Positions 2,487 through 22,986 of a DNA stretch of 32,000 nt are shown one piece after another. Within the stretch, counting starts at the first letter, position 1, and each line of letters opens with the position of its first letter. The position numbers and the translations under genes are program-made. Below the pieces are notes generated by a model. It was not told the origin of the DNA, did no database searches, and worked only from the letters and a program-made list of their open reading frames with translations. The DNA comes from Candidatus Methylomirabilis oxygeniifera (GTDB taxonomy: Bacteria > Methylomirabilota > Methylomirabilia > Methylomirabilales > Methylomirabilaceae), in assembly GCA_000091165.1 (NCBI GenBank), contig FP565575.1, positions 630,001 to 662,000 of the forward strand. Reading direction: 5' to 3'.

Positions 2487-4316
2487 ATGAGTGATCCTGA
2501 GAAGGGCTCGGCGAAGTTAAGCTCTTTTAGAAAGACCATGCGGAAGCTTTCTGAACAGCTTCCGGGGAGCGAGACCACGTACACCCGTAAGCTTTCTCGG
2601 TATGAGGGTGAGATCGAGGCGCTTCAAGCGCAGGTGAAGACGCTCGAAGAGGAGGTCTATCACCTTCAGCGACGACTGGATCAGACTCCCAAAGAGTTCG
2701 AGTTTCTCCGATCCAAGCTCGACCAGTCCCGCGAGCAGTTGGGTCAGGCGCATAATCAGAATCAGCGGATGGTCGAGGCCCTACAGCAGGCGAAGGAGCA
2801 GATAGAGAGCCTTCGTGAGGAAGTAGAGAAGCTCTCCGCCCCGCCGAGCCCGTATGGGATCTTTGCGTCGATGAACTCCGACCAGACGGCAAACATCTAT
2901 ACGGGCGGCCGGAAGATGAAGGTCAATCTTCACCCTTCAGTACGTCCGGATACGTTGCGTAAGGGCCAGGAGCTCATCCTGAATGAAGCGTTCAATGTCA
3001 TTGAGGCGGCAGGCTTCGATGAGCAGGGCGAGGTTGTGACCCTGAAAGACCTGCTCGATGAAGGTCGCGCTGTGGTCACACTGCGCGCCGATGAGATGCG
3101 AGTGGTTGAGCTGGCCGATCCGCTGCGGCAACTCTCCCTCAAAGCGGGTGACCATCTGCTCCTCGATCCGCGATCGGGGCACATTCTGGAGAAGTTACCC
3201 AAGACCGATGCCCAGGAGCTGTTCCTCGAGGAGGTTCCGAGTATCGGCTATGAGGCCATCGGCGGGCTCGGTCCTCAGATCGAGATGATCAGGGATGCCA
3301 TCGAGCTGCCGCATCTGTACGTTGACTATTTCAGAGAACACCAGCTCCAGCCCCCGAAGGGGGTGTTGCTCTATGGGCCGCCGGGTTGCGGCAAGACCCT
3401 GATCGCGAAGGCGGTCGCGCACTCGCTGGCCGAGCAACTGGCAAAGAAGACGGGACAGGCAGTCAAAGGCTACTTCTTGAACGTCAAGGGTCCTGAGTTG
3501 CTGAACAAATATGTCGGCGAGACGGAACGGCAGATACGGGAGATCTTCGGCAGGGCCAAGGAGAAGGCCACCGAGGGATCGCCGGTCGTTATCTTTTTTG
3601 ATGAGATGGACTCTCTCTTCCGGACTCGTGGTTCGGGCATCTCCTCGGATATAGAGTCTACGATCGTTCCGCAGTTCCTGGCGGAGCTGGATGGTGTAGA
3701 GGGGCTCAAGCACGTGATCGTCATCGGGGCTACGAACCGGCAGGATCTCATCGACCCGGCTGTCCTGCGTCCTGGACGTTTCGATGTCAAGATTAAAATC
3801 GACCGGCCCGATCAGAGTGCGGCTCATGAGATCTTCGCAAAGTATCTGACGGCCGAACTGCCGTTTGCAGCGACTGAACTCAAGACGCATGGGACGCGTG
3901 AAAAGGCGGCGGCAGCCATGATTGCGGCGGCCATTGAGCTTCTGTACGCCACAGTCCCTGAGCACCGCTTTCTGGAGGTCACGTACGCCTCCGGCCAGCA
4001 GGAAACGCTGTACTTCAAGGATTTCGCTTCGGGCGCCATGATCGAATCGGTCTGTACAAGGGCCAAGAAGCGGGCGGTCAAGCGGATGATCGCGACAGGC
4101 GTCAAGGGCCTGACGGTGGAAGACCTGCTCGATGCGGTCCGGACCGAGTTCAGGGAGAATGAAGATCTGCCGAATACCACCAATCCGGACGACTGGGCCA
4201 AGATTGCCGGTCGGCGAAGCGAGCGCATCGTGAATGTGCGGACAGTCTTCGACCGTGAAGAGAAAGAGAAGAAGTCCCGCAAGGTTGAAACCATCTCCAC
4301 CGGCCACTATCTATGA
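2487..4316 (+). CDS. arc: Proteasome-associated AAA+ ATPase ARC/Mpa
   Basis: Start moved to ATG 2487, with AGGAGG at 2471-2476 and a 10-nt spacer, giving 609 aa. It has a long N-terminal coiled coil (EIEALQAQVKTLEEEVYHLQRRLDQ...), Walker A GPPGCGKT, Walker B VVIFFDEMD and ATNRQDLIDPAVLRPGRFD. The C-terminus ends ...TGHYL, resembling the Mpa GQYL proteasome-docking tail as I recall it. Confidence 0.93.
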   Translation: MSDPEKGSAKLSSFRKTMRKLSEQLPGSETTYTRKLSRYEGEIEALQAQVKTLEEEVYHLQRRLDQTPKEFEFLRSKLDQSREQLGQAHNQNQRMVEALQQAKEQIESLREEVEKLSAPPSPYGIFASMNSDQTANIYTGGRKMKVNLHPSVRPDTLRKGQELILNEAFNVIEAAGFDEQGEVVTLKDLLDEGRAVVTLRADEMRVVELADPLRQLSLKAGDHLLLDPRSGHILEKLPKTDAQELFLEEVPSIGYEAIGGLGPQIEMIRDAIELPHLYVDYFREHQLQPPKGVLLYGPPGCGKTLIAKAVAHSLAEQLAKKTGQAVKGYFLNVKGPELLNKYVGETERQIREIFGRAKEKATEGSPVVIFFDEMDSLFRTRGSGISSDIESTIVPQFLAELDGVEGLKHVIVIGATNRQDLIDPAVLRPGRFDVKIKIDRPDQSAAHEIFAKYLTAELPFAATELKTHGTREKAAAAMIAAAIELLYATVPEHRFLEVTYASGQQETLYFKDFASGAMIESVCTRAKKRAVKRMIATGVKGLTVEDLLDAVRTEFRENEDLPNTTNPDDWAKIAGRRSERIVNVRTVFDREEKEKKSRKVETISTGHYL

Positions 4317-4504
4317 TGAGGCGTAATTGCGCAGGTAGATAGACCGAAGACTGTAGGTTTTTAATTGAGAGATTTGCACTACCGACTAAATTCAGCGAAG
4401 CGTTCGGGTTTCTTGCCCAACGGGAATTCATCACGTGAACCAAGAGCCGTAGAAACCAAGAAGGTCTTGAATGGCTTGATGCCTCGTCTTGCGATAATGT
4501 ATAA

Positions 4505-4536
4505 CCTTCAGCCTTCAGCCTAAACACCTGAGTAGC
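4505..4536. repeat. Isolated C-arm copy of the REP-like element just upstream of dop
   Basis: CCTTCAGCCTTCAGCCTAAACACCTGAGTAG. The tail CCTAAACACCTGAGTAG matches CCTTAACACCTGAGTAG at 16557-16573, upstream of ankyrin paralog 5. Confidence 0.55.
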
Positions 4537-4541
4537 TACAC

Positions 4542-6026
4542 ATGGCGATCGAAAAGATCATGGGGACCGAGACCGAGTTAGGGATCAGCGCTAAGGATCC
4601 CCGCGGGTTCGATCCCGTGTCCGGCTCCATCCTGTTGATTAACAGTCATCGTCCCATCGCTGAGGTGAAGGCGATATGGGATTATACCAGTGAGAACCCG
4701 CTCCTCGATGCCCGCGGATTCGAGGTGAGCGGGGAGCGCGAAAGGCCGAGTCAACAGGATAACCGCACCATCAATAAGCTGCTTCGAAACGGGGGCCGCC
4801 TCTATGTCGATGGGGCCCATCCCGAATACTCGACGCCGGAGTGCGCGGCCGCCCGGGACGTCGTTTGTTACGAGAAGGCGGGCGAGCGGATCTTCGAGCT
4901 GTGCCTGGCCTCAGCCAACCTGACCTTGCCGGAGCGGCAACGGATCGTTGTCTACAAGAATAATAGTGACGGGAAGGGGAACAGCTACGGCCACCATGAA
5001 AACTACCTGATGGAACGGCGGGTTCCATTTGACCGGATTGTCCAGGGGCTCGCTCCGTTTCTGGCGACCCGTCAGATCTTTGCGGGCTCGGGGAAGGTCG
5101 GGGCCGAAAACGGCGGCGAGTGTTGCGACTTTCAGATCTCTCAACGGGCCGACTTCTTCGAAACTTTTATCGGTCTCGACACCATGGCCAAGCGTCCCAT
5201 CATCAACACCCGCGATGAGCCCCACGCCGACGAGGAGAAGTACCGCCGCCTGCACGTCATTGTCGGCGACTCCAACATGTCGGAGGTCGCGACCTATCTG
5301 AAGGTCGGCACCACCGCCATCGTCCTCGCCATGGTCGAGGACGGCGTCATCACACGCGACCTCGCCCTCGAGGACCCCGTCCGGGCCATCAAGGAGATCT
5401 CCCACGACATCACCTGCCGCCGCCGGGTGCGCCTGAAGCGCGGCAAGGAGTTCTCCGCCGTTGAGATTCAGCGGGAGTACCTCGACCTGGCCCTCGAGTA
5501 CTACCAGGGCCGCGAACGCAGCCCCCAGGTGGCCGACCTTCTCGAGAAGTGGCAGTACGTCCTGGACAAGCTGGCGGAGGACCCGATGACGCTCAACCGC
5601 GAGCTCGACTGGGTCATCAAACACGGACTCATCACCTCCTACATCGCCCGCAAGGGTTGCTCCTTCGACGACCAGCGCGTCTTCATGCTGGACCTGCAGT
5701 ATCATGATCTCCGTCGGGACAAGGGACTCTACTTTACTCTGGAGCGCCAGGGATATGTTGAGCGGATCGTGACTGACGAAGAGATTCTTATGGCCATGAA
5801 GACGCCTCCAGCGGATACACGGGCCTACTTCCGCGGAATGTGCCTCGAGAAGTATCCTGACGAGGTCTACGGGGCGAGTTGGAGTTCGGTGCTCTTCGAT
5901 ACCGGCGAGGCCGCGGTGAAACGGATTCCCATGACCGATCCGTTGAGGGGTACGCAGAAATTGGCGAGCGAACTGCTGGATCGCTCCGACACCGCCGCGG
6001 AGTTGTTGGAGAATATCGCGGTCTAG
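4542..6026 (+). CDS. dop: Pup deamidase/depupylase Dop (Dop/PafA carboxylate-amine ligase family)
   Basis: 494 aa with family motifs MGTETELG, HPEYSTPEC, NSYGHHENY, INTRDEPHADEEKYRRLHVIVGDSNMSE. It carries about 30 more residues than the downstream paralog between the N-terminal GxExE strand and HPEYxTPEC, which matches my recollection of the Dop-specific loop. Its position right after arc and before prcB is the canonical dop position. Residues about 220-389 lie in the block shared with pafA, so only the flanks discriminate the two genes. Confidence 0.85.
   Translation: MAIEKIMGTETELGISAKDPRGFDPVSGSILLINSHRPIAEVKAIWDYTSENPLLDARGFEVSGERERPSQQDNRTINKLLRNGGRLYVDGAHPEYSTPECAAARDVVCYEKAGERIFELCLASANLTLPERQRIVVYKNNSDGKGNSYGHHENYLMERRVPFDRIVQGLAPFLATRQIFAGSGKVGAENGGECCDFQISQRADFFETFIGLDTMAKRPIINTRDEPHADEEKYRRLHVIVGDSNMSEVATYLKVGTTAIVLAMVEDGVITRDLALEDPVRAIKEISHDITCRRRVRLKRGKEFSAVEIQREYLDLALEYYQGRERSPQVADLLEKWQYVLDKLAEDPMTLNRELDWVIKHGLITSYIARKGCSFDDQRVFMLDLQYHDLRRDKGLYFTLERQGYVERIVTDEEILMAMKTPPADTRAYFRGMCLEKYPDEVYGASWSSVLFDTGEAAVKRIPMTDPLRGTQKLASELLDRSDTAAELLENIAV
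5198..5707 (+). repeat. Copy A of a 510-bp perfect direct repeat (inside dop)
   Basis: Base-by-base comparison of 5198-5707 with 8280-8789 (offset 3082) found no mismatch. The flanking bases differ on both sides (c5197/g8279, t5708/c8790). The block is in frame in both genes. Confidence 0.97.
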
Positions 6027-6055
6027 CGCATACGCGCTCCATTCGGGATACCTAT

Positions 6056-6907
6056 ATGCACTCGTTGTTCGATTCCATAGTTCCAGGTTCGAGTTTTTTT
6101 GACCTGCTCCGGCAGTGTCGCTCGGACCTGCTGCCGCAGATGCCGATCAAGCCGGAAGGCCTGTCGCAGGTCGAGATCCGGGAGTTGATGGAGCAACCTC
6201 ATGGGACCACCATTCTCGCGATGAGGTTCCGAGATGGAGCCCTCATCGCGGGCGATCGGCAGGCGACTGAGGGTTATCAGATCTCGTCACGGCGAATCGA
6301 AAAGGTCTACAAGGCGGATCAGTACTCGGCCATCGCTATTGCCGGCGTCGCCGGTCCGTGCATCGAGATGGCCAAGCTGTTTGAAGTGGAGCTGACTCAC
6401 TACGAGAAGCTGGAAGGAATGTCGCTCTCGTTGGAGGGAAAGGCGAACAAGTTGTCTCAGATGGTCAAGGCCAATCTCCCGATGGCGATGCAGGGATTGG
6501 TGGTGATCCCGATCTTTGTCGGCTACGACGTCAGAAGCGGTGACGGTAAGATTTTCAAGTACGATGTCACCGGCGGCAGGTACGAGGAAACGGATTACTA
6601 CGCGACAGGCTCCGGCGGGAAGGACGCCCGCTCCACGATGAAAAAGCTGTATCGCGATCGTATGACTGAGGACGAGGCGATAGCAGTCGGGCTGGAGGCG
6701 CTGATTGACGCGGCGGAGGAGGACGTAGGGACCGGAGGCCCCGACTTTATTCGCGGAGTCTTTCCTACTGTCAAGCTGGCTGCTAAGGCGGGTCTGCAGG
6801 ATGTGCCGGAGATCCGCGTCAGAGAACTCTGCCAGGCTATTATCGATCGCCGCAAGCTGGTTGAGAGAGGGGCGAAGGGTGAGACCGGGGTGGGTGAGGT
6901 GAGCTGA
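6056..6907 (+). CDS. prcB: 20S proteasome beta subunit PrcB with propeptide
   Basis: Start taken at ATG 6056; the track start at 5879 overlaps dop. The sequence ...EQPHG/TTILAMRFRDGALIAGDRQATEG... carries the G/T autoprocessing site exposing Thr1. VELTHYEKLEG resembles mycobacterial PrcB from memory. The stop overlaps the prcA start (TGATG). Confidence 0.93.
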   Translation: MHSLFDSIVPGSSFFDLLRQCRSDLLPQMPIKPEGLSQVEIRELMEQPHGTTILAMRFRDGALIAGDRQATEGYQISSRRIEKVYKADQYSAIAIAGVAGPCIEMAKLFEVELTHYEKLEGMSLSLEGKANKLSQMVKANLPMAMQGLVVIPIFVGYDVRSGDGKIFKYDVTGGRYEETDYYATGSGGKDARSTMKKLYRDRMTEDEAIAVGLEALIDAAEEDVGTGGPDFIRGVFPTVKLAAKAGLQDVPEIRVRELCQAIIDRRKLVERGAKGETGVGEVS

Positions 6908-7602
6908 TGGCGCTTCCGTATTACGTGTCACCAGAGCAGATGATGCAGGATAAGGCGGAGTATGCCCGGAAGGGGATCGCCAGAGGAAAATCGATCATCG
7001 TTCTGGAATATGCTGACGGAATGATGCTGGTGGCTGAGAATCCCAGCGCGTCACTCAATAAGATCTCAGAGATTTACGACCGGATCGCCTTTGCCGGCGC
7101 CGGGCGGTACAGCGAGTTCGAAAATCTCCGGAAGGCGGGGATTCGGTATGCGGACCTGAAGGGGTTTGCGTATGACCGGGAAGACGTGACGGCCAAGTCG
7201 CTCGCCAATGCCTACTCTCAGACCATCGGCAATATTTTCAGCGAGGCGATGAAGCCGCTGGAGGTAGATATTTTAGTGGTAGAAGTGGCCGATGGCGGAG
7301 GACTGCCTAATGAGGTATATCGGATTGCCTTTGACGGCAGCATCTACGACGAGAAGGGGTTTGCTGCAATCGGCGGGCAGGCTGAAGAGATCAGGCAGCA
7401 CCTGAAGGACAAATACCAGACGGGACTTGATCGGAAGGCGGCTCTCAGGCTGGCTATACAGGCGCTGGAAGCCGTGAGCAGTACGAAGATCGAATCGAGA
7501 AGCCTGGAGGTGGCGATCCTGGAGCGCAGTCGCACGGGCCGGAAGTTCCGCCGCCTTTCCCAGGATGATCTCACGACAATTCTCACCGATACAGAGTCAT
7601 AG
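6907..7602 (+). CDS. prcA: 20S proteasome alpha subunit PrcA
   Basis: 231 aa. MALPYYVSPEQMMQDKAEYARKGIARGKSIIVLEYADGMMLVAENPSASLNKISEIYDRIAFAGAG closely parallels actinobacterial PrcA as I recall it. It is translationally coupled to prcB. Confidence 0.93.
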   Translation: MALPYYVSPEQMMQDKAEYARKGIARGKSIIVLEYADGMMLVAENPSASLNKISEIYDRIAFAGAGRYSEFENLRKAGIRYADLKGFAYDREDVTAKSLANAYSQTIGNIFSEAMKPLEVDILVVEVADGGGLPNEVYRIAFDGSIYDEKGFAAIGGQAEEIRQHLKDKYQTGLDRKAALRLAIQALEAVSSTKIESRSLEVAILERSRTGRKFRRLSQDDLTTILTDTES

Positions 7603-7666
7603 CTCCGCACGATTCTCCAGCCCCGCACCACGTACCTTAGACCTCGCACATATCTACGGAATTCCA

Positions 7667-7695
7667 TTGACCGTCACAGGGCCTTCCGGTACGAT
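7667..7695 (+). promoter_or_regulatory. Candidate internal promoter upstream of pafA
   Basis: TTGACC (7667-7672), a 17-nt spacer, then TACGAT (7690-7695). It lies in the 111-nt prcA-pafA gap, 18 nt upstream of ATG 7714. Confidence 0.35.
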
Positions 7696-7713
7696 GATAA
7701 TGGAGTCGTTGCC

Positions 7714-9072
7714 ATGCAGGAGCGTATCCTTGGACTGGAAAGCGAATACGGTCTGATCTCGTCCTCGGTCGGCGGGCGGGTGAACCTGTCGGTCGAAAGC
7801 GCACTGGGCTATCTCTTTGAAAAGGTGGTCTCGCGCCAGCGCGGGACCAACGACTTTCTGCGAAATGGCGCGCGCCTCTATCAGGATACCGGTTGTCATC
7901 CAGAGTATGCGACCCCCGAGTGCGATAACCCTCGGGACGTGGTCATCCACGACAAGGCGGGCGAGCGGATCGTGGAGGAGTTGCTCCTGAGCGCCGAGCA
8001 GAAGCTTCACGAGAATGGCATCTACTGCGACATCTACATCTTCAAGAACAATACGGACTCCGTCGGGAACACGTACGGCTGCCACGAGAACTATCTGGTG
8101 CAGCGCGGCGTGAATTTCCACAAGCTGGCAGAGCAGTTGATTCCCTTCTTCGTCACGCGTCAGGTTTTTGCGGGTGCAGGCAAGGTACTTCGGACGAGGA
8201 TGGGGAATCATTACTATATTTCACAGCGGGCGCAACATATCTACCAGGAGATCTCCGGCGCGACGACCAGCTCGCGCGGCATCATCAACACCCGCGATGA
8301 GCCCCACGCCGACGAGGAGAAGTACCGCCGCCTGCACGTCATTGTCGGCGACTCCAACATGTCGGAGGTCGCGACCTATCTGAAGGTCGGCACCACCGCC
8401 ATCGTCCTCGCCATGGTCGAGGACGGCGTCATCACACGCGACCTCGCCCTCGAGGACCCCGTCCGGGCCATCAAGGAGATCTCCCACGACATCACCTGCC
8501 GCCGCCGGGTGCGCCTGAAGCGCGGCAAGGAGTTCTCCGCCGTTGAGATTCAGCGGGAGTACCTCGACCTGGCCCTCGAGTACTACCAGGGCCGCGAACG
8601 CAGCCCCCAGGTGGCCGACCTTCTCGAGAAGTGGCAGTACGTCCTGGACAAGCTGGCGGAGGACCCGATGACGCTCAACCGCGAGCTCGACTGGGTCATC
8701 AAACACGGACTCATCACCTCCTACATCGCCCGCAAGGGTTGCTCCTTCGACGACCAGCGCGTCTTCATGCTGGACCTGCAGTATCATGACATCAAGCGAA
8801 CCCGCGGACTGTACTATCTCATGCTGCATGGTGACCTGATCGATCGGGTCATCACGGACGATGAGATCGAGACGGCCATGACGACGCCGCCGCAAACGAC
8901 GCGGGCCAAAGTACGAAGCGACTTTATCAGGTACGCGAATGAGAAGAATAAGTCGTACGATGTGGGCTGGAGCTACCTGAAGCTGAACGACCGGTATCAG
9001 CGAACCATCCTCTGTAAGGATCCGTTCAAACCCTGGGATCCGCGCGTGGATGAGTTGATCGGTCTGTCGTAG
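7714..9072 (+). CDS. pafA: Pup--protein ligase PafA (Dop/PafA family)
   Basis: 452 aa with motifs LGLESEYG, HPEYATPEC, NTYGCHENY, INTRDEPHADEEKYRRLHVIVGDSNMSE. It lacks the N-terminal insertion seen in the upstream paralog. Its position after prcA is canonical for pafA. Residues about 190-359 are encoded by the block identical to dop. Confidence 0.85.
   Translation: MQERILGLESEYGLISSSVGGRVNLSVESALGYLFEKVVSRQRGTNDFLRNGARLYQDTGCHPEYATPECDNPRDVVIHDKAGERIVEELLLSAEQKLHENGIYCDIYIFKNNTDSVGNTYGCHENYLVQRGVNFHKLAEQLIPFFVTRQVFAGAGKVLRTRMGNHYYISQRAQHIYQEISGATTSSRGIINTRDEPHADEEKYRRLHVIVGDSNMSEVATYLKVGTTAIVLAMVEDGVITRDLALEDPVRAIKEISHDITCRRRVRLKRGKEFSAVEIQREYLDLALEYYQGRERSPQVADLLEKWQYVLDKLAEDPMTLNRELDWVIKHGLITSYIARKGCSFDDQRVFMLDLQYHDIKRTRGLYYLMLHGDLIDRVITDDEIETAMTTPPQTTRAKVRSDFIRYANEKNKSYDVGWSYLKLNDRYQRTILCKDPFKPWDPRVDELIGLS
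8280..8789 (+). repeat. Copy B of the 510-bp perfect direct repeat (inside pafA)
   Basis: Identical to 5198-5707; see copy A. Confidence 0.97.
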
Positions 9073-9097
9073 AGATCGTGCCGTGGGTTAAGTGTTT

Positions 9098-9163
9098 AGC
9101 GGTCAGCCCCTTGAACCGTCAGCGTCCGACCGCTGAGAGCTGATCGCTGAACGCTGACAGCCG
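9098..9163. repeat. Palindromic intergenic element of the GCTGAC/GTCAGC type downstream of pafA
   Basis: CCGTCAGCGT (9116-9125) is nearly complementary to ACGCTGACAG (9151-9160). The inner segment GCTGAGAGCTGATCGCT (9132-9148) recurs at 15526-15542 with 16/17 identity. Confidence 0.5.
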
Positions 9164-9170
9164 TATTACA

Positions 9171-9204
9171 AGAGAGGGGTGGCGGTCGCCATCCCTCTCT
9201 TTTT
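9171..9204 (+). terminator. Rho-independent terminator closing the proteasome operon
   Basis: AGAGAGGGGTGG (9171-9182) pairs with CCATCCCTCTCT (9189-9200) as a 12-bp stem with one G-U pair and a 6-nt loop. TTTT follows immediately (9201-9204). Confidence 0.7.
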
Positions 9205-9245
9205 GCGCCCCGAATGTGGGCGGAGCCGTTGAAAGGAGTGATCGA

Positions 9246-10766
9246 GTGAAGATAGAGCTCAAGGTGCAGGATTTGCTGTCCTACGAGGGAGATGCGCTTA
9301 TTGTGAATCTGTTCGAAGGGGTGCAGCGCCCGGACGGGGCGACCGGGGCGGTGGACCAGGCGCTCGGCGAGTCGATTACCGCCGCCATCCGTCGGCGGGA
9401 GTTCAAGGGCAAACTCCACGAGCGACTCCTGCTGCATACTTCCGGGCAGCTTCCGGTGACTCGGCTACTGGTGATTGGACTCGGCAAGCAGGACGAGTTA
9501 TCTCTTGAGCGGGTGCGCTCAGCCTCGGCAGAGGCAATGCGTCATCTGCGCGGAGTGGGGGTACGGACGGTGGGCTCTATCGTTCATGGCGCCGGTATCG
9601 GGGGACTGGATGCCGGCCAGGCGGCATGCGCTGTGACCGAGGGGGCATCATTGGGCCTCTATCGATTTGACAAATATAAAAAGCCGGAGGAGAACGGGGA
9701 AAAGGTCGTTCAAAAGCTGACGTTGCTGGAGCGCGACCGAGCCAAGGCGTCTGCAATGCAAGGGGGGATATGTCGTGGCCGGATCCTGTCTGAGGCTGTG
9801 AGTTTCGCCCGTGATTTAGTGAATGAGCCGGCGAATACGCTGACCCCTTCGGAACTGGCGGCACGGGCTAGGAGGATGACGAGCGGGTTGGGTCTCACCG
9901 TCAAGATACTGGAGCGCGCCGACATGAAGAGGCTCGGCATGGGGGCGTTGTTGGGGGTGGCTCAGGGCAGCCAGGAGCCCCCGAAGCTCATTGAAGTAAG
10001 CTATAAGGGGAGGAAAGGGAAAGGGGCCGGTCCACGCCTTGGTCTGGTAGGCAAAGGGCTTACGTTCGACTCCGGAGGAATCTCCATCAAGCCGAGCGAG
10101 GGGATGGAGGCGATGAAGGGTGATATGGCCGGCGGAGCGGTGGTCCTCGCAGCGATCAAAGGGATTGCGGAGCTGAAGCTGCCGGTAGATGTGACGGCGA
10201 TCGTACCCGCGACCGAGAATCTACCGAGCGGGACGGCCCAGCGCCCGGGCGACATCGTCACAGCCATGAACGGAAAGACGATTGAGGTTATCAATACCGA
10301 CGCCGAAGGACGACTGATCCTGGCCGATGCCCTCTGTTACGCATGCGACAAGGGACTCACGCATCTTGTCGACGTCGCGACATTGACGGGCGCGTGCGTG
10401 ATCGCGCTCGGCTCGGTCCGGACGGGCGCCTTTACGAATAATCCGGAGCTGATGGGGCAGGTGAAGCAGGCCAGCGAGGCGGCCGGTGAGAAAATCTGGG
10501 AACTGCCTATGGATCACGAGTACGGCGAACAGATCAAGAGCGACTACGCCGATATGAAGAATATTGGAGGCAGGAAGGCCGGGCCGATCACAGGTGCGAA
10601 GCTCCTGGCCAACTTCGTCGAGAAAACTCCGTGGGTTCACCTGGATATCGCCGGGACCGCGCAAACTGAAAAGGAGTACGGATACCAGATAAAAGGGGCG
10701 ACGGGGGCTATGGTCCGTACTCTGATCTATCTGGCGATGAGCTTCGATAGCTCGAAGAAGAAATGA
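9246..10766 (+). CDS. pepA: Leucyl aminopeptidase (M17 family)
   Basis: M17 signature NTDAEGRLILADAL plus VGKGLTFDSGGISIKP. The preferred start is GTG 9246, with AAGGAG at 9233-9238 and a 7-nt spacer. The track start GTG 9216 is an alternative. Confidence 0.9.
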   Translation: MKIELKVQDLLSYEGDALIVNLFEGVQRPDGATGAVDQALGESITAAIRRREFKGKLHERLLLHTSGQLPVTRLLVIGLGKQDELSLERVRSASAEAMRHLRGVGVRTVGSIVHGAGIGGLDAGQAACAVTEGASLGLYRFDKYKKPEENGEKVVQKLTLLERDRAKASAMQGGICRGRILSEAVSFARDLVNEPANTLTPSELAARARRMTSGLGLTVKILERADMKRLGMGALLGVAQGSQEPPKLIEVSYKGRKGKGAGPRLGLVGKGLTFDSGGISIKPSEGMEAMKGDMAGGAVVLAAIKGIAELKLPVDVTAIVPATENLPSGTAQRPGDIVTAMNGKTIEVINTDAEGRLILADALCYACDKGLTHLVDVATLTGACVIALGSVRTGAFTNNPELMGQVKQASEAAGEKIWELPMDHEYGEQIKSDYADMKNIGGRKAGPITGAKLLANFVEKTPWVHLDIAGTAQTEKEYGYQIKGATGAMVRTLIYLAMSFDSSKKK

Positions 10767-10776
10767 CGCGACTGTC

Positions 10777-11007
10777 CTAGACGGCGACGCATGTCACGGT
10801 TCGCATGACGCCTTTCAAGGTGCGAATTTTCGAGAGGACGACTGATCCGACCGTGCCGACATCAGTGGCCTCAACGCACGCGATGACGTCGTAGGGCCCG
10901 GTGACGGCATGCGCCGACTTTACTCCTTTGATCTTCTGTAACGCTTTTACGATGTTGGCCGTCTGATCCGACGCGCCTTCGATCAGGACATACGCCGTGG
11001 TTGTCAT
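10777..11007 (-). CDS. Stand-alone Lrp/AsnC ligand-binding (RAM) domain protein
   Basis: 76 aa. MTTTAYVLIEGASDQTANIVKALQKIKGVKSAHAVTGPYDVIACVEATDVGTVGSVVLSKIRTLKGVMRTVTCVAV follows the beta-alpha-beta-beta-alpha-beta pattern typical of the AsnC-type effector domain. It has no DNA-binding HTH. Confidence 0.7.
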   Translation of the reverse strand: MTTTAYVLIEGASDQTANIVKALQKIKGVKSAHAVTGPYDVIACVEATDVGTVGSVVLSKIRTLKGVMRTVTCVAV

Positions 11008-11099
11008 CGCGCATCCCTCCTTTTGGGTAACCGGCCGGCTGTGCGTCTCTGGTCATCCTTGTGCCCTGGTCAGTGACTGACGCGGGCGAATGAACGGTC

Positions 11100-11127
11100 T
11101 TGACTCGACGTATGTATACGATATATT
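11100..11127 (+). promoter_or_regulatory. Candidate sigma70-type promoter upstream of the MFS gene
   Basis: TTGACT (11100-11105), a 16-nt spacer, then TATATT (11122-11127). Confidence 0.35.
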
Positions 11128-11171
11128 TCAGTGATGCACAAGGAGAAAGACAGGGGGCTGACGGTACATAG

Positions 11172-12395
11172 ATGGATCGATCAGGCAAGAGTCACCTTGT
11201 AATGTTGTCGAGCCCGACCCGTGAGGCGCCGGATCGCTCTATTGACGACACGATTCCCAGCTTCAACTTTTTTGTGGCCTCTCTTTCGAATTTTTTCTTT
11301 TTCACGAATCTTAATGCCTTCAGTCTGCTTCCCCTGTATATCAAGACGCTTGGGGGAACCGAATCGCAGATCGGTTGGATCATGGGTAGCTACAGTCTGA
11401 CGGCCATTCTTGGACAGCCCGTAGCCGGGGTCCTTATTGACCGGTTCGGACGCAAACGATTCCTGCTGGTAGGATCGGCATTGGGGATGCTGGCCGCGAT
11501 CGGCTTTGCGTTCTCGACCTACCTGGATGCGCGATTCGTACTCTTTCGTATCCTGCAGGGCATCGGGTACTCCACCTTCTATATCGCGAATCTGACGCTG
11601 GTGTCTGAAATGGTTCCGTCGAGCCGTCGCGGGGAGGCGGTGGGCCTTTTCGGGATCTCCGGACTTATTACGATCGCGCTCTCTCCGGCGATCGGAGAGC
11701 AGGTCATCCATCGAGCCGGATATCCAACGTTCTTTTTGGCTGCCGCTGTCGCGGCGGCGGCCTGTCTGCTGACAAGTCTGGCGTTCCGCAATCTCCCATC
11801 GACATCCCGAGGCACTATCTCGTCGGGCTTCGCTTTCCTGATTCCATCCGCGCGCATCCTGCCGCCGATTCTCCTCTCGATGGTATTCGGCTTGGCCTCC
11901 GGGGCGGTGTTCGTATTTTTGCCGACTTACGCGATGCAGACGGGGTTGTCGCGGATCGGCGGGTTCTACATTGCATACAGCGTAGCGGCCGTCGGTATCC
12001 GATTAACCTGCGGTAAGCTGTCTGATCAATGGGGACGTCAGCGCGTGATTCTTCCCGCCCTGCTGCTTATGGCATCCGGCACCCTGGGTCTTGTCTGGCT
12101 CATTTCTCCGGTTGGTCTGCTGTTAATCGGAACGCTGACCGGAATGGCGCACGGCTTGCTGTTCCCGGCCCTGAGCGCCTATACAATCGATCTGGCGGAG
12201 TCGGATGGGCGCGGACGCGCCTTGGGTGCTTTCAGCACCGCTATGTTGCTGGGTCATGCGCTTGCAGCGTTCACATTCGGGATTGTCGCGGAGCAGTTCG
12301 GCTACCGGGCGATCTATCTTCTGGCTTCGGCCATTGCGATGACCACCTTCTGTGTATTATTGTGTGTCCGAAACAGGGCTCAGATAGTGCGATAG
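11172..12395 (+). CDS. MFS transporter
   Basis: 407 aa with about 12 hydrophobic segments. The MFS loop 2-3 motif is present as GVLIDRFGRKRFLL. The start could also be ATG 11202. Confidence 0.85.
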   Translation: MDRSGKSHLVMLSSPTREAPDRSIDDTIPSFNFFVASLSNFFFFTNLNAFSLLPLYIKTLGGTESQIGWIMGSYSLTAILGQPVAGVLIDRFGRKRFLLVGSALGMLAAIGFAFSTYLDARFVLFRILQGIGYSTFYIANLTLVSEMVPSSRRGEAVGLFGISGLITIALSPAIGEQVIHRAGYPTFFLAAAVAAAACLLTSLAFRNLPSTSRGTISSGFAFLIPSARILPPILLSMVFGLASGAVFVFLPTYAMQTGLSRIGGFYIAYSVAAVGIRLTCGKLSDQWGRQRVILPALLLMASGTLGLVWLISPVGLLLIGTLTGMAHGLLFPALSAYTIDLAESDGRGRALGAFSTAMLLGHALAAFTFGIVAEQFGYRAIYLLASAIAMTTFCVLLCVRNRAQIVR

Positions 12396-12529
12396 CCCGC
12401 GGTGTCGGAAGCGATAGATGAACGTGTTCATACTCGATATTCTCGATGTCCACGAGAGGCGGGCGCCACGGCGGGACGCTTCGGCAAGAGGGTGGACGGA
12501 CAGATGTGAGGAAGTGAAAGGGAGGGCAT

Positions 12530-13441
12530 ATGGGTTGGTTCAGCGCATTATGTGAGGGCGGCGGGAAATCCGGTAAAAGGCTCATCGAGGCCTCTAAATC
12601 AGGAACTGCGGAAACGGTCACGCGCCTGTTGACTGAAGGCGTTGATGCAAATGCGGGTGATCAACATGGCTGGACGGCACTGATGTATGCGTCCTGGCAT
12701 GGACGTTCCGGAATAGTGGAGCTGCTGCTCAAGCACGGCGTCGACGTACACGCAAAGGATCATAATGGCTGGACAGCCCTGATGCGTGCAGCGTGGAAAG
12801 GGTACGCCGGGATTGTAGAGCTGCTGCTCAAGCACGGCGCCGACGTACACGCAAAGGATCATAATGGCTGGACAGCCCTGATGCATGCCTCTTGGAGAGG
12901 GCATTCCGGGGCGGTAGAGCTGCTGCTTAAGCACGGCGCCGACGTACAGGTCAGAGATAAAGACGGCTGGACGTCGCTGATGCATGCGTCCGGTCATGGG
13001 CGCTCCAGGGCGGTAGAGCTGCTGCTTAAGCACGGCGCCGACGTACAGGTCAGAGATAAAGACGGCTGGACGGCGCTGATGCGTGCATCCTGGAACGGAC
13101 ATGCCGGGGTGGTCGCGATGCTGCTGAAGCATGACGCAGATCCGAACGTGAAGGATCAGAGCGGCTGGACGGCGCTGATGCGTGCGTCCTGGCGAGGACA
13201 TTCCGGGGTGGTCGCGATGCTGCTGAAGCATGACGCAGATCCGAACGTGAAGGATCAGAAGGATGGGACGGCCCTGACACACGCGTCCGAGAGAGGGCGT
13301 TTTAGAATTGTCGCGCTCCTGCTTCAGTACGGCGCCGATATGCACGTGAAGGATTATAAACGTCAGACGGCCCTGATGTACGCGTCTTTGCATGGGCATT
13401 CGAGAGTTGCAGAGCTGCTGCAGAGACACGCCGCGTCCTGA
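12530..13441 (+). CDS. Ankyrin-repeat protein, paralog 1 (303 aa, about 9 ANK modules)
   Basis: 33-aa periodicity of DxxGWTALMxASWxGHxxxVELLLKHGADV. N-terminus is MGWFSALCEGGGKSGKRLIEASKSG. SD GGGAGGG lies 4 nt upstream of the ATG. Confidence 0.9.
   Translation: MGWFSALCEGGGKSGKRLIEASKSGTAETVTRLLTEGVDANAGDQHGWTALMYASWHGRSGIVELLLKHGVDVHAKDHNGWTALMRAAWKGYAGIVELLLKHGADVHAKDHNGWTALMHASWRGHSGAVELLLKHGADVQVRDKDGWTSLMHASGHGRSRAVELLLKHGADVQVRDKDGWTALMRASWNGHAGVVAMLLKHDADPNVKDQSGWTALMRASWRGHSGVVAMLLKHDADPNVKDQKDGTALTHASERGRFRIVALLLQYGADMHVKDYKRQTALMYASLHGHSRVAELLQRHAAS
12719..13259 (+). repeat. Three adjacent pairs of near-identical 99-bp ANK-module duplications inside paralog 1
   Basis: 12719-12785 vs 12818-12884 is 66/67 identical. 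12909-12983 vs 13008-13082 is 74/75 identical. 13104-13160 vs 13203-13259 is 57/57 identical. All three pairs are offset by exactly 99 nt. Confidence 0.9.
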
Positions 13442-13625
13442 GAGCACGGCGCCGGATTTCACACATTGGAAATGTCTTGCTAAGCTGTATACTTGATTTG
13501 TATGGACCCTTTTGTAGGGTCTCGGAGTATGGGGGCGGCCGTCTCGAATCCGGCGTCCTGATCGGGGATCGACCGCAGCCGTGTGCGGGATGGGATAGAT
13601 GGGCTAGATGTGATAGGAGGGGGGT

Positions 13626-14339
13626 ATGGGTTTCTTTAGCGCATTATTTGAAAGTGATGAGAAGCCTGTTGATAAGCTTATTGAGGCGTCCAAATCCGGA
13701 GATATTGAAAAGGTGAAAAGGCTGCTGGCTGAAGGCGCTGACGTGCATGTGATTGATAAAGATGGCGTGACCGCTCTGATGCACGCGTCTGAGAATGGGC
13801 ATACTGAGGTTATGGAGCTACTGCTCAACAAAGGCGCTGATGTGAACGCCAGAGATAAACTTGGCTGGACGGCCTTGATGCAAGCGGCCTGGCATGGACA
13901 AGCCAAGGTGGCAGAGCTGCTGCTCAATCAGGGCGCCGATGTCAATGCGCAGGCCGTGAGTGGCGCGACCGCCTTGATACGCGCGTCCGAGAAAGGACAT
14001 GCCGGGGTTGTCGGACTGCTGCTCATTCGAGGTGTTGATGTGGACGCAAAGGCGGGAGACGGCGCGACCGCCCTGATACGCGCGGCCTGGCATGGACATG
14101 CCGGGGTTGTCGGACTCCTGCTCAATCACGGCGCTGATGTGGATGCGAGAGACAACAACCGTGCGACCGCCCTGATACGCGCGGCCTGGCATGGACATGC
14201 CAAGGTGGCGGAGCTGCTGCTCAATAAAGGCGCTGATGTGAGCGCGAAGGATAATATGAATGCGACGGCCTGGATGTATGCCTCCCAGAATAAACTTTCT
14301 AAGATTGCTGAACTGCTGGACAGACACGGCGCGCGCTAA
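13626..14339 (+). CDS. Ankyrin-repeat protein, paralog 2 (237 aa, about 7 modules)
   Basis: N-terminus MGFFSALFESDEKPVDKLIEASKSGDIEKVKRLLAEGADV, followed by ANK modules. SD AGGAGGGG lies just upstream. Confidence 0.9.
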   Translation: MGFFSALFESDEKPVDKLIEASKSGDIEKVKRLLAEGADVHVIDKDGVTALMHASENGHTEVMELLLNKGADVNARDKLGWTALMQAAWHGQAKVAELLLNQGADVNAQAVSGATALIRASEKGHAGVVGLLLIRGVDVDAKAGDGATALIRAAWHGHAGVVGLLLNHGADVDARDNNRATALIRAAWHGHAKVAELLLNKGADVSAKDNMNATAWMYASQNKLSKIAELLDRHGAR

Positions 14340-14383
14340 GATGCAAAGAAGCGATCGGCGTTCGGCGATTAAGGGATAGGAGT

Positions 14384-14457
14384 ATAGGCTGAAGACCGAA
14401 GGCTGAAGGATCCTCACAATCTTCCACCTTCAGCCTATTTACCTTCAGCCTTCAGTC
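14384..14457. repeat. REP-like palindromic spacer (AGGCTGAAGG / CCTTCAGCCT arms) between paralogs 2 and 3
   Basis: G-arms ATAGGCTGAAG (14384-14394) and AAGGCTGAAGGA (14399-14410) face C-arms CCTTCAGCCTAT (14427-14438) and ACCTTCAGCCTTCAG (14441-14455). Confidence 0.6.
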
Positions 14458-14505
14458 TGGTACTGACCCCTGACAGCTTTGTTTTCGAAGGAAGAGGGAG
14501 GTTGT

Positions 14506-15417
14506 ATGGGTTTCCTGAGCTCATTATTTGGGAGTGGTGGGAAGCGTGGTAAAAGGCTGATCGAGGCGTCCAAATCCGGAGAAACCGGAAAAGTTAAGAG
14601 CCTGTTGGCCGAAGGCGCCGATGTGAATGCGATAGATGGGGACGGCTGGACAGCCCTGATGCATGCATCGTGGGTCGGACATCTTACGGTTGTCGAAGCG
14701 CTGCTCGATCGTGGCGCTGATGTGAACGTGCAGGATAAGAATGGGGGGACGGCACTGATCCGGGCGGCCTGGAAAGAACACGCCCGTGTGGTGGAGAGGC
14801 TTCTCGCGAAAGGCGCTGAGGTTGACGTAAAGGATAAAGATAGCTTTAGCGCGCTGATGCGTGCGGCATGGAATGGCCGTTTCGGAGTGATAGAGATACT
14901 CCTCAATAACGGAGCAGTTGTGGATGCGAGGGACAAATTTGGTTGTACGGCCCTCATACGCGCGTCGTTGAATGGCCATACCAGGATTGCGGAACTCCTG
15001 CTCGATCGAGGCGCGGACCTGAACGCGCTGGATCAACATGGCGGGACGGCGCTGATACATGCCGCCGCGCAGGGCCATACCGGGGTTGCGGAGCTCCTGC
15101 TCGATCGAGGCGCGGACCTGAACGTACGGGATCAATACAGCAGGACGGCGCTGATACGGGCCGCCGCGCATGGCCATACCGGGGTTGCAGAACTCCTGAT
15201 CAATCGAGGCGCGGACCTGAACGTACGGGATCAACATGGCGGGACGGCGCTGATACGGGCCGCCGCGCATGGCCATACCGGGGTTGCGGAACTCCTGCTC
15301 GATCGAGGCGCGGACCTGAACATGTGGGATGCCGATGGCGGGACGGCTTTGGAGCGCGCATCTTTGAATGGACACCTTAAGATGTTGGAACTGTTGAAGA
15401 AGTATGGGGCACAGTAA
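14506..15417 (+). CDS. Ankyrin-repeat protein, paralog 3 (303 aa)
   Basis: Start moved to ATG 14506 (GAGGGAGG SD 5 nt upstream), so the N-terminus is MGFLSSLFGSGGKRGKRLIEASKSG as in the other paralogs. ANK periodicity runs throughout. Confidence 0.9.
   Translation: MGFLSSLFGSGGKRGKRLIEASKSGETGKVKSLLAEGADVNAIDGDGWTALMHASWVGHLTVVEALLDRGADVNVQDKNGGTALIRAAWKEHARVVERLLAKGAEVDVKDKDSFSALMRAAWNGRFGVIEILLNNGAVVDARDKFGCTALIRASLNGHTRIAELLLDRGADLNALDQHGGTALIHAAAQGHTGVAELLLDRGADLNVRDQYSRTALIRAAAHGHTGVAELLINRGADLNVRDQHGGTALIRAAAHGHTGVAELLLDRGADLNMWDADGGTALERASLNGHLKMLELLKKYGAQ
14974..15370 (+). repeat. Four consecutive highly similar 99-bp ANK modules inside paralog 3
   Basis: GGCCATACC recurs at 14974, 15073, 15172 and 15271. 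GHTGVAELLLDRGADLNVRDQ-type units share long identical runs. Confidence 0.85.
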
Positions 15418-15437
15418 GATTAAAAAAAGTGATCAGC

Positions 15438-15500
15438 TATAGGCGGAAGAGGCTGAAGGCAGATAGACTGAAGGCGTTGAGTATTCTTCAGTCTTCAGCG
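15438..15500. repeat. REP-like palindromic spacer between paralogs 3 and 4
   Basis: G-arms AGGCGGAAG, AGGCTGAAGG and AGACTGAAGG face C-arms CTTCAGTCTTCAGCG. A GCTGAGCGCTGATCGCT motif follows at 15526-15542. Confidence 0.6.
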
Positions 15501-15564
15501 TAACCCTTTGCTTTTGTGGCTGACGGCTGAGCGCTGATCGCTATGCTCTCAGAAAGGAGGGTAT

Positions 15565-16476
15565 ATGGGTTTATTTGGGTCACTATTTGAGGGTGGTGGA
15601 AAGCATGGCGCAAAGCTCATCGCGGCGTCTCAATCCGGAGAGACCGATAAAGTCAAGAGCCTGTTGGCTGACGGCGCCGATGTCAATGCGAAGGATCGCG
15701 AGGGCTGGACGGCTCTGATGCATGCGTCCTGGCATGGACATGCCGAGGCGGCAGCGGCACTGCTCGATCGTGGCGCTGACGTGGGGACGACGGATAACAA
15801 TGGTGGGACCGCTCTGATACGCGCGTCCTGGCATGGGCATGTCGAGATTGCGGAGCGACTGATCGCGAAAGGCGCCGATGTCAACGTGAGCGACAAAGAC
15901 AGCTTTACGTCCCTCATGTATGCGTCCGAGAATGGGCACGTGAAGGTCGTAGAGCTGCTGCTCACGCACGGCGCCGCTATCGACGCCAGGGCCGGTAATG
16001 GCCGGACGGTTCTGATGATGGCGTCTGCGGAAGGATATACTGAGGTGGTAGACCTGCTGATCAGTAAGGGCGCCGACGTCAATGTCTGGGACAAGACCGG
16101 CTGGACGGTCCTGATGTATGCATCCGGGAAGGGGCATACCGGGATTGCAGAGCGGCTGCTCGCGAAAGGCGCCGATCCGAATGCGAAGGATAGTAATAGT
16201 GTCACAGCCCTGATGCGTGCGGCTGTGAATGGGCGTTTCGGGGTCGCAGAACTGCTGCTCAAACACGGCGCCGATCTGAATGCGAAGGATAGTAATAGCG
16301 TCACAGCCCTGATGTATGCGGCCGGGAAAGGACATGCGAAGGTTGTAGAGTTACTGCTCACGCAAGGCGCGGACGTGAACGTCAAGGCGAATGATGGCGG
16401 GACGGCCCTGGAGTATGCGCATTGGCATGGGTATGATGACGTTACGGAGCTGCTTGAGAAACACGGGGCGCACTGA
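15565..16476 (+). CDS. Ankyrin-repeat protein, paralog 4 (303 aa)
   Basis: N-terminus MGLFGSLFEGGGKHGAKLIAASQSGETDKVKSLLADGADV, followed by ANK modules. SD AAAGGAGGG lies upstream. Confidence 0.9.
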   Translation: MGLFGSLFEGGGKHGAKLIAASQSGETDKVKSLLADGADVNAKDREGWTALMHASWHGHAEAAAALLDRGADVGTTDNNGGTALIRASWHGHVEIAERLIAKGADVNVSDKDSFTSLMYASENGHVKVVELLLTHGAAIDARAGNGRTVLMMASAEGYTEVVDLLISKGADVNVWDKTGWTVLMYASGKGHTGIAERLLAKGADPNAKDSNSVTALMRAAVNGRFGVAELLLKHGADLNAKDSNSVTALMYAAGKGHAKVVELLLTQGADVNVKANDGGTALEYAHWHGYDDVTELLEKHGAH

Positions 16477-16483
16477 GTGGGAG

Positions 16484-16575
16484 TAAGGCTGAAGGGATTT
16501 AGGCTGAAGGAGGATAGGCTTCAAGGCGCTATTCCTAAAAGCCTAACAGCCTACAGCCTTAACACCTGAGTAGTT
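16484..16575. repeat. REP-like palindromic spacer between paralogs 4 and 5
   Basis: Tandem G-arms TAAGGCTGAAGGGATT, TAGGCTGAAGGAGGAT and AGGCTTCAAGG occupy 16484-16526. A degenerate C-arm GCCTAACAGCCTACAGCCTTAACACCTGAGTAG follows. Confidence 0.6.
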
Positions 16576-16590
16576 GCGAAAGGAGGCACT

Positions 16591-17502: not shown

Positions 17503-17508
17503 GTCGGA

Positions 17509-17592
17509 GTATAGGCTGAGGACTGTTAGCCTTCTAGGGGTCGCACCTTGAAGTCTATCCTCCTTCAGCCTAAATCCCTTCAGCCTATTTAC
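17509..17592. repeat. REP-like palindromic spacer between paralogs 5 and 6
   Basis: 17546-17588 is the reverse complement of 16484-16526 (40/43 identical by my alignment). CCTTCAGCCTATTTACCTT is also present at 14427-14445. Confidence 0.65.
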
Positions 17593-17608
17593 CTTGAAAG
17601 GAGGCACT

Positions 17609-18427: not shown

Positions 18428-18857
18428 GACGACGCTGCAGAATGTCACATATAGCCCCCTCTATCGAGAGCCTGTTCCGGACTCAACCTGGGGGGTGAGC
18501 GTGGGTTTTCCCTTGAACTCAGCGTAATCTCTCTGATAAGTGTGTCAGCCATTTCTGCCACCATCTCCCGCTTGATGCCCTCTTCGGTTCTGGCGTCGTG
18601 AAATACCAGAGAGGGCCGAGCCGGGTGCGACGCACGCGGTCATGTCGCGCATCGCGCTCAAGGGGTTCCCGGAAAGACCGGGCAGGAGGAAACCGTGGTT
18701 GCACCTGGGCTGGATACGTTCCGGGTGGCCCGCTTCAAAGTCGCGCCTGAAGCGAGGGGCCGGCTCCGCCTTCTCGATCACACGGGTTCCGTCCTCTGCC
18801 TCTCGCACATCGGCCCGCGCGGTGACGGCGCGCGCCGGACGCGCCGGAGTGCGGGAC

Positions 18858-21348: not shown

Positions 21349-21437
21349 GCAAGAGGCCGAAGGCAAGTGCGAGGCCATCATCGCTTCGGCTGATCGCCGT
21401 CGGGAGACGGCTCCTGCCCGGACCACTGGAAGCCCAG

Positions 21438-22934: not shown

Positions 22935-22986
22935 AAGCCGGGATTGGGGGTTGGGCGTTGGGGGTTAGCGGGAAGAGAGGCAGGGG

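Follow-up and report, generated by a model that had tools for sequence, protein, structure and literature searches.

A 510-bp segment shared by the dop and pafA genes of Candidatus Methylomirabilis oxygeniifera is very probably kept identical by gene conversion

The genes dop and pafA of Candidatus Methylomirabilis oxygeniifera, which encode a predicted depupylase/deamidase (Dop) and a predicted Pup ligase (PafA), are paralogs of opposing function that share a central segment of 510 bp without a single difference. Both genes lie in a proteasome gene cluster within a 32,000-bp stretch of the genome (GenBank assembly GCA_000091165.1, contig FP565575.1, positions 630,001 to 662,000 of the forward strand), which was analyzed as a whole and is referred to below as the window; coordinates are those of the window unless another locus is named. 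We consider it very probable that the two segments, here called the block, form a true direct repeat that is kept identical by repeated gene conversion between dop and pafA. The evidence lies in the pattern of identity, its recurrence in related lineages, a conflict between trees built from the block and from its flanks, a step in base composition at third codon positions, and the spectrum of synonymous substitutions.

Positions 5198–5707 (dop) and 8280–8789 (pafA) agree at 510 of 510 bases with a constant offset of 3082; no exact run at this offset is longer. Outside the block, ungapped identity between the two genes is 18–41% in 100-nt bins at the same offset; the bin 5701–5800 reaches 57%, a figure that includes the final seven bases of the block. 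A first-pass annotation, made from the letters of the window alone, had reported the identity, the offset, the abrupt edges, and about 170 shared in-frame residues, and all of these are borne out by base-by-base comparison and by the codon positions and translations of the open reading frames (ORFs). Both copies are read in the same codon register, as dop codons 220–389 (5199–5708) and pafA codons 190–359 (8281–8790), and specify one and the same 170-residue sequence (IINTRDEPHAD...FMLDLQYHD). The run of identity is offset by one base from the codon frame, so that dop ends the block with the codon GAT and pafA with GAC; that codon aside, none of the 170 third positions differs, whereas the two genes of the outgroup phyla are unlike at about 40–45% of all bases. 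At the 5′ edge, KRP precedes IINTR in Dop and SRG precedes it in PafA; at the 3′ edge, QYHD is followed by L in Dop and by I/V in PafA. Chance is excluded as the origin of this identity, the paralog pair being 54–68% identical over this segment in other phyla, and because the synonymous sites are homogenized too, selection at the protein level cannot account for it.

The same block recurs in many lineages of the phylum. We compared dop with pafA within each of 61 loci from species-representative genomes and 79 loci from metagenomes (numbered with the prefix L). The same 510 bp with the same codon edges, at least 99% identical between dop and pafA, are found in at least 13 loci that represent distinct lineages of NC10/Methylomirabilota. 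The copies match at 510 of 510 positions in L005, L006, L075, L076, and L079, and in the metagenome-assembled genome (MAG) nzgw240, whose locus is split over L004 and L037. They differ by one mismatch each in L009, L011, and L067, by one mismatch and one indel in L050, by two mismatches in L065 (a 1.43-Mb contig, GCA_040960765.1), and by five mismatches each in L068 and L070. Identity is about 97% in L055, 82–85% in the mosaic blocks of L010, L090, and L093, and 74% in L008 and L020. In the outgroups it is 58–68% (Myxococcota) and 54–58% (Poribacteria) at the nucleotide level, or 54–68% for the two together, with 47–56% identity in amino acids; the block copies of L008 are 70% identical in amino acids, against those 47–56%.

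Several of the less regular loci have features of their own. In L010 (1076–1588 versus 4246–4755), the dop copy has a 3-nt insertion, and the first ~145 nt of the two copies are identical, followed by ~85% identity; L090 and L093 have the same 3-nt insertion and are 82–83% identical overall. The tract seems to have shrunk here, or conversion to be blocked beyond the indel. The differences between copies in L068 and L070 are clustered within ~100 nt (block positions 93–177 and 54–156, respectively), which suggests that a short piece was imported recently or that conversion covered less than the whole block. The dop frame is interrupted within the block by single-base indels in two Nanopore MAGs (~8726–8728 in L050; 8954–8962 in L055), probably through sequencing errors and not because the genes are pseudogenes.

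As the first-pass annotation had proposed, the N-terminal flank, the block, and the C-terminal flank were placed in separate trees with orthologs, here by neighbour-joining on these short segments. The trees of both flanks split into Dop and PafA, with matching lineage groups in each, whereas in the tree of the block each NC10 genome, L008 included, has its two copies as sisters. The block of the window shares 75–83% of its amino acids with the blocks of other lineages. Third positions of the block differ by 6.5–38% between lineages, against 99–100% identity of the copies within a genome. The closest comparison is with L065, whose block differs from that of the window at 11 of 170 third positions (6.5%), with the copies within each genome 0–2 bases apart; as the two genomes each have their own homogenized version, homogenization must postdate their split. 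The flanks of homogenized lineages differ at up to 50% of third positions and are themselves under purifying selection: between the window and L065, the N-terminal part of pafA differs at 0.5% of first and second positions and at 16.4% of third positions. Within the tract, then, paralogs are closer to one another than to their orthologs, orthology prevails outside it, and the pattern recurs from lineage to lineage, as is characteristic of concerted evolution.

The copies would be held identical by repeated non-reciprocal homologous recombination, which may depend on the recombination machinery (RecA, RecBCD, or RecFOR) by analogy with the bacterial tuf genes. The process most probably began in an ancestor of most sampled NC10/Methylomirabilota, continuing in many descendants and decaying in a few; a shared onset followed by decay in L008 and L020, and partly in L010, L090, and L093, is the most economical reading of the distribution.

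The block also differs from its flanks in base composition. Of the 170 codons, 14 end in A or T in the dop copy and 13 in the pafA copy; the C-terminal flank of dop has 29 such codons among 105. This recount agrees closely with the first-pass figures (about 13 of 170 against roughly 30 of 105). The G+C fraction at third positions (GC3) is 0.92 in the block (0.918 in the dop copy, 0.924 in the pafA copy) and 0.72–0.77 across the flanks; expressed as counts, it is 156 of 170 codons in the block and 454 of 606 in the four flanks (Fisher p = 5e-7). This places the block in the top 1.7% of the 170-codon windows of this 32,000-bp stretch, still inside the range that some local genes cover (GC3 of 0.86–0.89 at 18.6–23.8 kb). 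Nowhere else but in the gene run at 18642–23778, with GC3 values of 0.79–0.89 against a mean of 0.76 for the whole stretch, do 170-codon windows attain the GC3 of the block. The excess of block over flanks is 0.15–0.17 in the two converting genomes of ~60% GC (the window and L065) and 0.04–0.09 in converting genomes of ~67% GC, whose GC3 is almost saturated. In L008 (60% GC, copies 74% identical) the excess is ~0.02, and over 30 outgroup genomes it averages ~0.03.

Parsimony counts of synonymous third-position changes within the Methylomirabilis group, made at this one locus, indicate which changes are involved. GC-to-AT changes per GC site amount to 0.84 (dop) and 0.79 (pafA) in the flanks and to 0.43 and 0.38 in the block, a deficit with Fisher p values of 3e-4 and 6e-3 (7e-5 pooled), whereas interchanges between G and C reach 0.40 and 0.40 in the flanks and 0.49 (dop) and 0.38 (pafA) in the block. 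In theory, unbiased conversion leaves the neutral substitution rate unchanged; a bias is therefore needed to explain the deficit of GC-to-AT changes. The spectrum fits GC-biased conversion resisting an AT-ward drift in the Methylomirabilis lineage, and the raised GC3 of the block may be a by-product of GC-biased repair during conversion.

Other explanations of the identity have to be weighed against this one. The absence of any difference in the 510 bp of the window would also follow from a single, very recent conversion confined to this genome, without a longer history, but it shows only that the last event was recent. Since the same tract with the same edges is homogenized in at least 13 loci with far-diverged flanks, the block tree is grouped by genome across the clade, and the window and L065 carry separate homogenized versions, we regard this account as very unlikely; of the very recent gene conversion put forward in the first-pass annotation, the mechanism stands, and the single event in one genome gives way to a process that recurs with the same boundaries in many NC10 lineages. 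Extreme purifying selection on the nucleotide sequence, exerted for instance by an embedded RNA or DNA element, would require no recombination at all and could draw on the third-position divergence between species, which in the block is only ~0.5–0.7 times that of the flanks. Selection on a fixed sequence, however, is unable to yield identical pairs that are specific to each genome; species differ at 6.5–38% of third positions while copies within a genome differ at 0–1%, and interchanges between G and C build up at the rate of the flanks. We give this possibility next to no credence. The foreign-looking codon usage noted in the first-pass annotation is real as a rise in GC3, but a foreign origin is not supported: that both genes acquired the block by horizontal transfer from a third, higher-GC donor is extremely unlikely. 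Such a transfer would explain a GC3 of 0.92 beside flanks of 0.72–0.77, and other NC10 genomes do have 65–69% GC and a block GC3 of 0.96–0.99. Against it, none of the lineages sampled outside the Methylomirabilis group is close, the blocks of L005, L009, and L011 differing at 27–38% of third positions; the branching of the block among NC10 lineages agrees with that of the flanks; the low-GC Methylomirabilis relatives all share the raised GC3 (0.90 in L065; 0.85–0.92 in L067, L068, and L070); and the spectrum has a specific deficit of GC-to-AT changes, unlike that of imported sequence.

The window comes from a metagenome-type assembly, and the first-pass annotation had accordingly raised a chimeric or collapsed assembly, in which the true middle segments differ and one sequence was placed in both genes. 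Short-read assemblies of relatives are indeed disturbed here: the block is where many contigs break, hybrids make up 43 of the 120 best Dop-like database clusters, and bubble-popping could mask a handful of single-nucleotide polymorphisms. Assemblers do not, however, turn segments of 55–75% identity into identical sequence, and breaks and loop contigs are what a true repeat longer than the k-mer is expected to produce. The window Dop is identical, residue for residue, to CBE67817.1 and KAB2960714.1, and the window PafA to CBE67820.1 and KAB2960717.1; the exact pair is present in the M. oxyfera reference (2.75 Mb), in the separate MAG GCA_009026205.1 (WBTX01000003.1, 239 kb), and in the ENA contig Methylomirabilis_oxyfera_contig_159. 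Assemblies of other lineages with long contigs or Nanopore reads keep both copies with 0–2 differences over the same 510 bp; long-read relatives have 1–2 differences between copies. The MFD MAG series, which includes L009, L011, L050, and L055, derives from deep Nanopore sequencing (PMC12313526), and these four MAGs have both copies in place, 0.2–3% different. The residual mismatches in L065, L009, and L011 imply that their copies were assembled separately. An assembly artefact is thus highly unlikely, and repeated conversion between dop and pafA remains our preferred reading.

The position of the block within the two enzymes was mapped by alignment to solved structures. Its first residue corresponds to I223 of A. 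cellulolyticus Dop and I203 of C. glutamicum PafA, and the copies as a whole to residues 223–395 and 203–380, respectively. At residue 5 stands a conserved arginine (R227 of Dop, R207 of PafA). Numbered as in C. glutamicum, the block contains the loop before beta7 (205–215), beta7 itself (216–222), and the peripheral helices (260–343), and it stops ahead of the C-terminal domain (408 onward). The alpha-loop (A. cellulolyticus F208–K220; C. glutamicum H188–S200) ends three residues upstream of the block, and part of the Pup-binding groove (the S126 loop and R185 of C. glutamicum PafA) also lies outside it. The alpha-loop is a loop contacting Pup in Dop and a helix in PafA (PMC8599861, PMC7947786), and its replacement is required to change the activity of Dop (PMC7947786, PMC8599861). 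The 20 substitutions that turn M. smegmatis Dop into a ligase fall at A. cellulolyticus positions 27–220 and 452 (PMC7947786), none of the 20 within the block (223–395). Uniquely conserved positions number 48, with 33 in residues 1–220, ten in the block, where the changes are mostly conservative, and five after it. Columns that are diagnostic of the paralogs in non-actinobacterial outgroups number 15 of 184 in the N-terminal flank, 3 of 170 in the block, and 3 of 88 in the C-terminal flank. Just outside the block, then, would lie the determinants of ligase and depupylase activity: on the upstream side the alpha-loop and Dop-loop, on the downstream side the C-terminal domain.

Both edges fall on motifs that are conserved in the two paralogs, IINTRDEPHAD on the 5′ side and LDLQYHD on the 3′ side, and the longest exact matches between dop and pafA of the outgroups lie on the IINTRDEPHAD or the LQYHD motif. 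A founder tract may have fixed the edges, which missing homology in the flanks and purifying selection on the edge motifs would then maintain, while selection on the flanking determinants would purge any tract that spread beyond them. Conversion of the Salmonella tuf genes goes no further than homology extends (PMC5485169), and the collapse of homology at both edges of the block fits that limit. If both enzymes are active, as we suppose, the central 170 residues would be functionally interchangeable between Dop and PafA.

Several points weigh against this account or parts of it. A few real differences between the copies in the window assembly could have been erased by bubble-popping or polishing, and some of the intact loci come from short-read co-assemblies, so that not all are independent species and some may have been sampled twice. 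Selection at the edges is deduced from actinobacterial mutagenesis, and the same edges would arise, with no selection at all, from a single founder tract whose flanks lack homology. GC-biased conversion is read from parsimony at one locus, where the block counts of dop and pafA are not independent and the per-site rates of G+C-to-A+T relative to A+T-to-G+C changes are poorly estimable; block-specific selection on codon usage is a possible alternative. Finally, no pup gene was found in the window, where ORFs ending in GGQ or GGE were chance matches only and tblastn with an NC10 Pup gave no hit.

The first-pass annotation had also seen the block as more Dop-like than PafA-like, so that PafA, were the block real, would carry a Dop-type central region. 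Against actinobacterial structures this impression holds, the block scoring 187 and 153 bits with Dop and 111 bits, with 8 extra residues, with C. glutamicum PafA. Scores with the NCBIfam models barely favour Dop, at 211.7 bits (Dop) and 201.7 bits (PafA), and identity to non-actinobacterial outgroups is equally balanced (0.578 and 0.558 to Dop, 0.585 and 0.557 to PafA). The three block columns that are diagnostic in the outgroups all have the Dop state, and the ten actinobacterial signature positions in the block are a mixture of Dop and PafA states. With the outgroups equidistant and the signatures mixed, a Dop-type region in PafA is not established. These data do not single out Dop or PafA as the donor, and if conversion has long run in both directions there may be no one donor to name.

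The cluster, all on the forward strand, has the order arc-dop-prcB-prcA-pafA and is followed by an M17 aminopeptidase gene. It begins with arc/mpa (2538–4316), encoding the proteasome-associated AAA ATPase (Pfam AAA, Prot_ATP_ID_OB_N, and Prot_ATP_ID_OB_C); its start differs among public records (592, 609, and 607 amino acids), and the ORF reaches back as far as a TTG at 2433 (627 amino acids). The dop gene (4542–6026, 494 amino acids) scores 576.5 bits with TIGR03688 (cutoff 492.3). Its Dop-specific N-terminal part, residues 1–219 (4542–5197), includes the Dop-loop and is 18–38% identical to pafA per 100-nt bin; the block is followed by a Dop-specific C-terminal part, residues 390–494 plus the stop codon (5708–6026), with 30–37% amino acid identity to the C-terminal part of PafA. 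Within the 3082-bp repeat interval lie prcB (6056–6907) and prcA (6907–7602), encoding the beta and alpha subunits of the 20S proteasome (Pfam Proteasome). The pafA gene (7714–9072, 452 amino acids) scores 575.9 bits with TIGR03686 (cutoff 551.3).

By sequence, Dop and PafA of the window each belong to their own family in terms of equivalog scores, loops, and insertions. Dop reaches only 420 bits with the PafA model, below its cutoff of 551.3, and PafA 418 bits with the Dop model, below its cutoff of 492.3. Dop has an N-terminal part 30 residues longer than that of PafA and an IWDY-type tryptophan segment, and its alpha-loop equivalent (residues 205–217, 5154–5192), FFETFIGLDTMAK, aligns without gaps to FFEVEVGLETTLK of A. 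cellulolyticus Dop (F208–K220); the position of A. cellulolyticus His95 is a glycine. PafA lacks the Dop-loop, and its YQDTGCHPEY segment holds a one-residue insertion after the catalytic Asp, where the C. glutamicum counterpart of the region reads L-D-V-G-S. PafA's helical equivalent of the alpha-loop (residues 175–187, 8236–8274), HIYQEISGATTSS, aligns to C. glutamicum H188–S200 with S194, A196, T197, T198, and S200 retained.

The pup gene is likewise absent from every M. oxyfera-group locus examined. Elsewhere it lies directly downstream of dop, in Myxococcota, Poribacteria, and some NC10 lineages (L008, L020, L048, L081, L082, L115, and L133), or, in further NC10 lineages (L009, L011, L050, L055, L076, L080, and others), ahead of arc and ~2.45–2.5 kb upstream of dop; all Pups at these loci end in GGQ or GGE. 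Converting lineages for which upstream sequence is available have pup upstream of arc, and the non-converting L008 and L020 keep dop-pup-prcB. Relocation of pup as the onset of conversion was considered and rejected: L133 keeps dop-pup, yet its block ends are 97.1% identical.

The process proposed here, classical gene conversion, is known from the tufA and tufB genes of Salmonella and E. coli, which evolve in concert by RecA-type conversion (PMC5485169). As in that case, two paralogs on one bacterial chromosome are kept near-identical over the long term by non-reciprocal recombination. The tuf copies, however, have the same function and are homogenized over the whole gene, whereas in dop and pafA only the central third is affected, the enzymes catalyze opposite reactions, and the blocks repeat in direct orientation at a distance of 3 kb within one cluster, separated by two genes that look essential. 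Segmental conversion between diverged paralogs, with islands of divergence kept by selection, occurs in the primate red/green opsin, RHD/RHCE, and globin genes. These too have a homogenized tract beside diverged functional segments, shared by related species; they differ from the present case in being eukaryotic and meiotic, whereas dop and pafA encode a bacterial ligase/hydrolase pair whose tract keeps the same codon-exact edges in lineages of a deep clade.

Published evidence on GC-biased gene conversion in bacteria reportedly consists of genome-wide correlation and concerns recombination between strains. Recombining sequence is described as G+C-richer at synonymous sites (PMC4450053). The converting sequence here is also G+C-richer (GC3 of 0.92 versus 0.75) and has a deficit of GC-to-AT changes, but the contrast lies within two genes, between paralogs, with the flanks as an internal control, and is known from sequence counts. 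In the mutagenesis of Hecht et al. (PMC7947786), determinants of ligase and hydrolase activity (the alpha-loop, the Dop-loop, residues close to the catalytic Asp, and a single residue in the C-terminal domain) lie outside the segment shared in NC10; theirs was laboratory mutagenesis of the M. smegmatis enzyme, whereas the NC10 proteins are natural chimeras known from sequence. NC10 is named by Hecht et al. only as a phylum with sporadic homologs, with no mention of recombination (PMC7947786). A full-text literature search returned no report of gene conversion, concerted evolution, or recombination between dop and pafA, and nothing relevant on Methylomirabilis together with Pup. What is new is the pairing of a ligase with its antagonist hydrolase, codon-exact edges across a deep bacterial clade, and an internally controlled signal of GC bias.

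The repeat has left its mark on public databases. Among the best 120 database clusters for Dop, 77 are of Dop type, 38 are hybrids that join the N-terminal part of Dop (dopN), the block, and the C-terminal part of PafA (pafC), and five are reciprocal hybrids (pafN, block, dopC). Exactly 482 amino acids (219+170+93) are found in 33 of the 38 (for example, MDE2059969.1), and the five reciprocal hybrids have 464 (189+170+105). The hybrid clusters (P0016–P0110) are annotated as PafA2 or Dop, and related loci are L007, L046, L074, L083, L087, L088, L095–L103, L105–L110, and L113. All four junction types are found among short-read metagenome contigs. Many contigs of Methylomirabilis relatives end 24–47 codons into the block, which equals the k-mer overlap, and the loop contigs L057, L059, and L124 run from the 3′ end of the block through dopC, prcB, prcA, and pafN to the 5′ end of the block. 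The hybrids probably arose when contigs were wrongly joined at a genuine repeat that exceeds the read or insert length; the alternative is that they are real recombinant alleles. In L070 (JGI1356J14229_10000378, a 44.9-kb contig), positions 6001–13423 read dopN-block-dopC...pafN-block-dopC...pafN-block, so that the dopC-prcBA-pafN loop is passed through two times, either because unequal exchange in the block produced a tandem duplication or because the assembler unrolled a cycle. Short-read NC10 assemblies are thus broken or misjoined at the proteasome locus by the repeat, and with about one-third of the closest PafA2/Dop database clusters being hybrid, annotation and phylogenies of Dop and PafA would be misled.

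Elsewhere in the window, 12516–18300 contains six adjoining paralogous genes built of 99-nt (33-amino-acid) units, two of which, when scanned, have Pfam ankyrin repeats (Ank_2, 276 bits). An N-terminal stretch of 186 nt is also common between genes of this array (family D3), and an 81-nt inverted repeat (16486–16566 and 17506–17586, 84% complementary) joins oppositely oriented members.

A bolder proposal, which we think unlikely, is that identity of the block is itself selected for, keeping ligase and depupylase fitted to the same partners, and that the direct repeat yields segregating deletion and duplication alleles. If this were so, the shared module would evolve as one unit, with the opposing chemistry carried by the flanks and with Pup, nucleotide, and perhaps each other as the partners. 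Deletion alleles would then be the 482-amino-acid Dop-PafA hybrid without the 20S genes, segregating in NC10 populations, and duplication alleles the 464-amino-acid reciprocal hybrid with a tandem copy of the L070 type.

Under repeated conversion between dop and pafA, the locus provides a clean bacterial case of segmental concerted evolution between paralogs of opposing function. It could also serve as a test bed for GC-biased gene conversion in bacteria, with tract and flanks compared in the same genes and genome and with relatives in which conversion has stopped. For the enzymes themselves, if both are active, the central 170 residues, comprising the R227/R207 loop, beta7, and the peripheral helices, would hold nothing that decides between ligation and hydrolysis. 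An interchangeable block of this kind agrees with and would extend the mutagenesis of Hecht et al., as a natural domain swap in the Pup-proteasome system.

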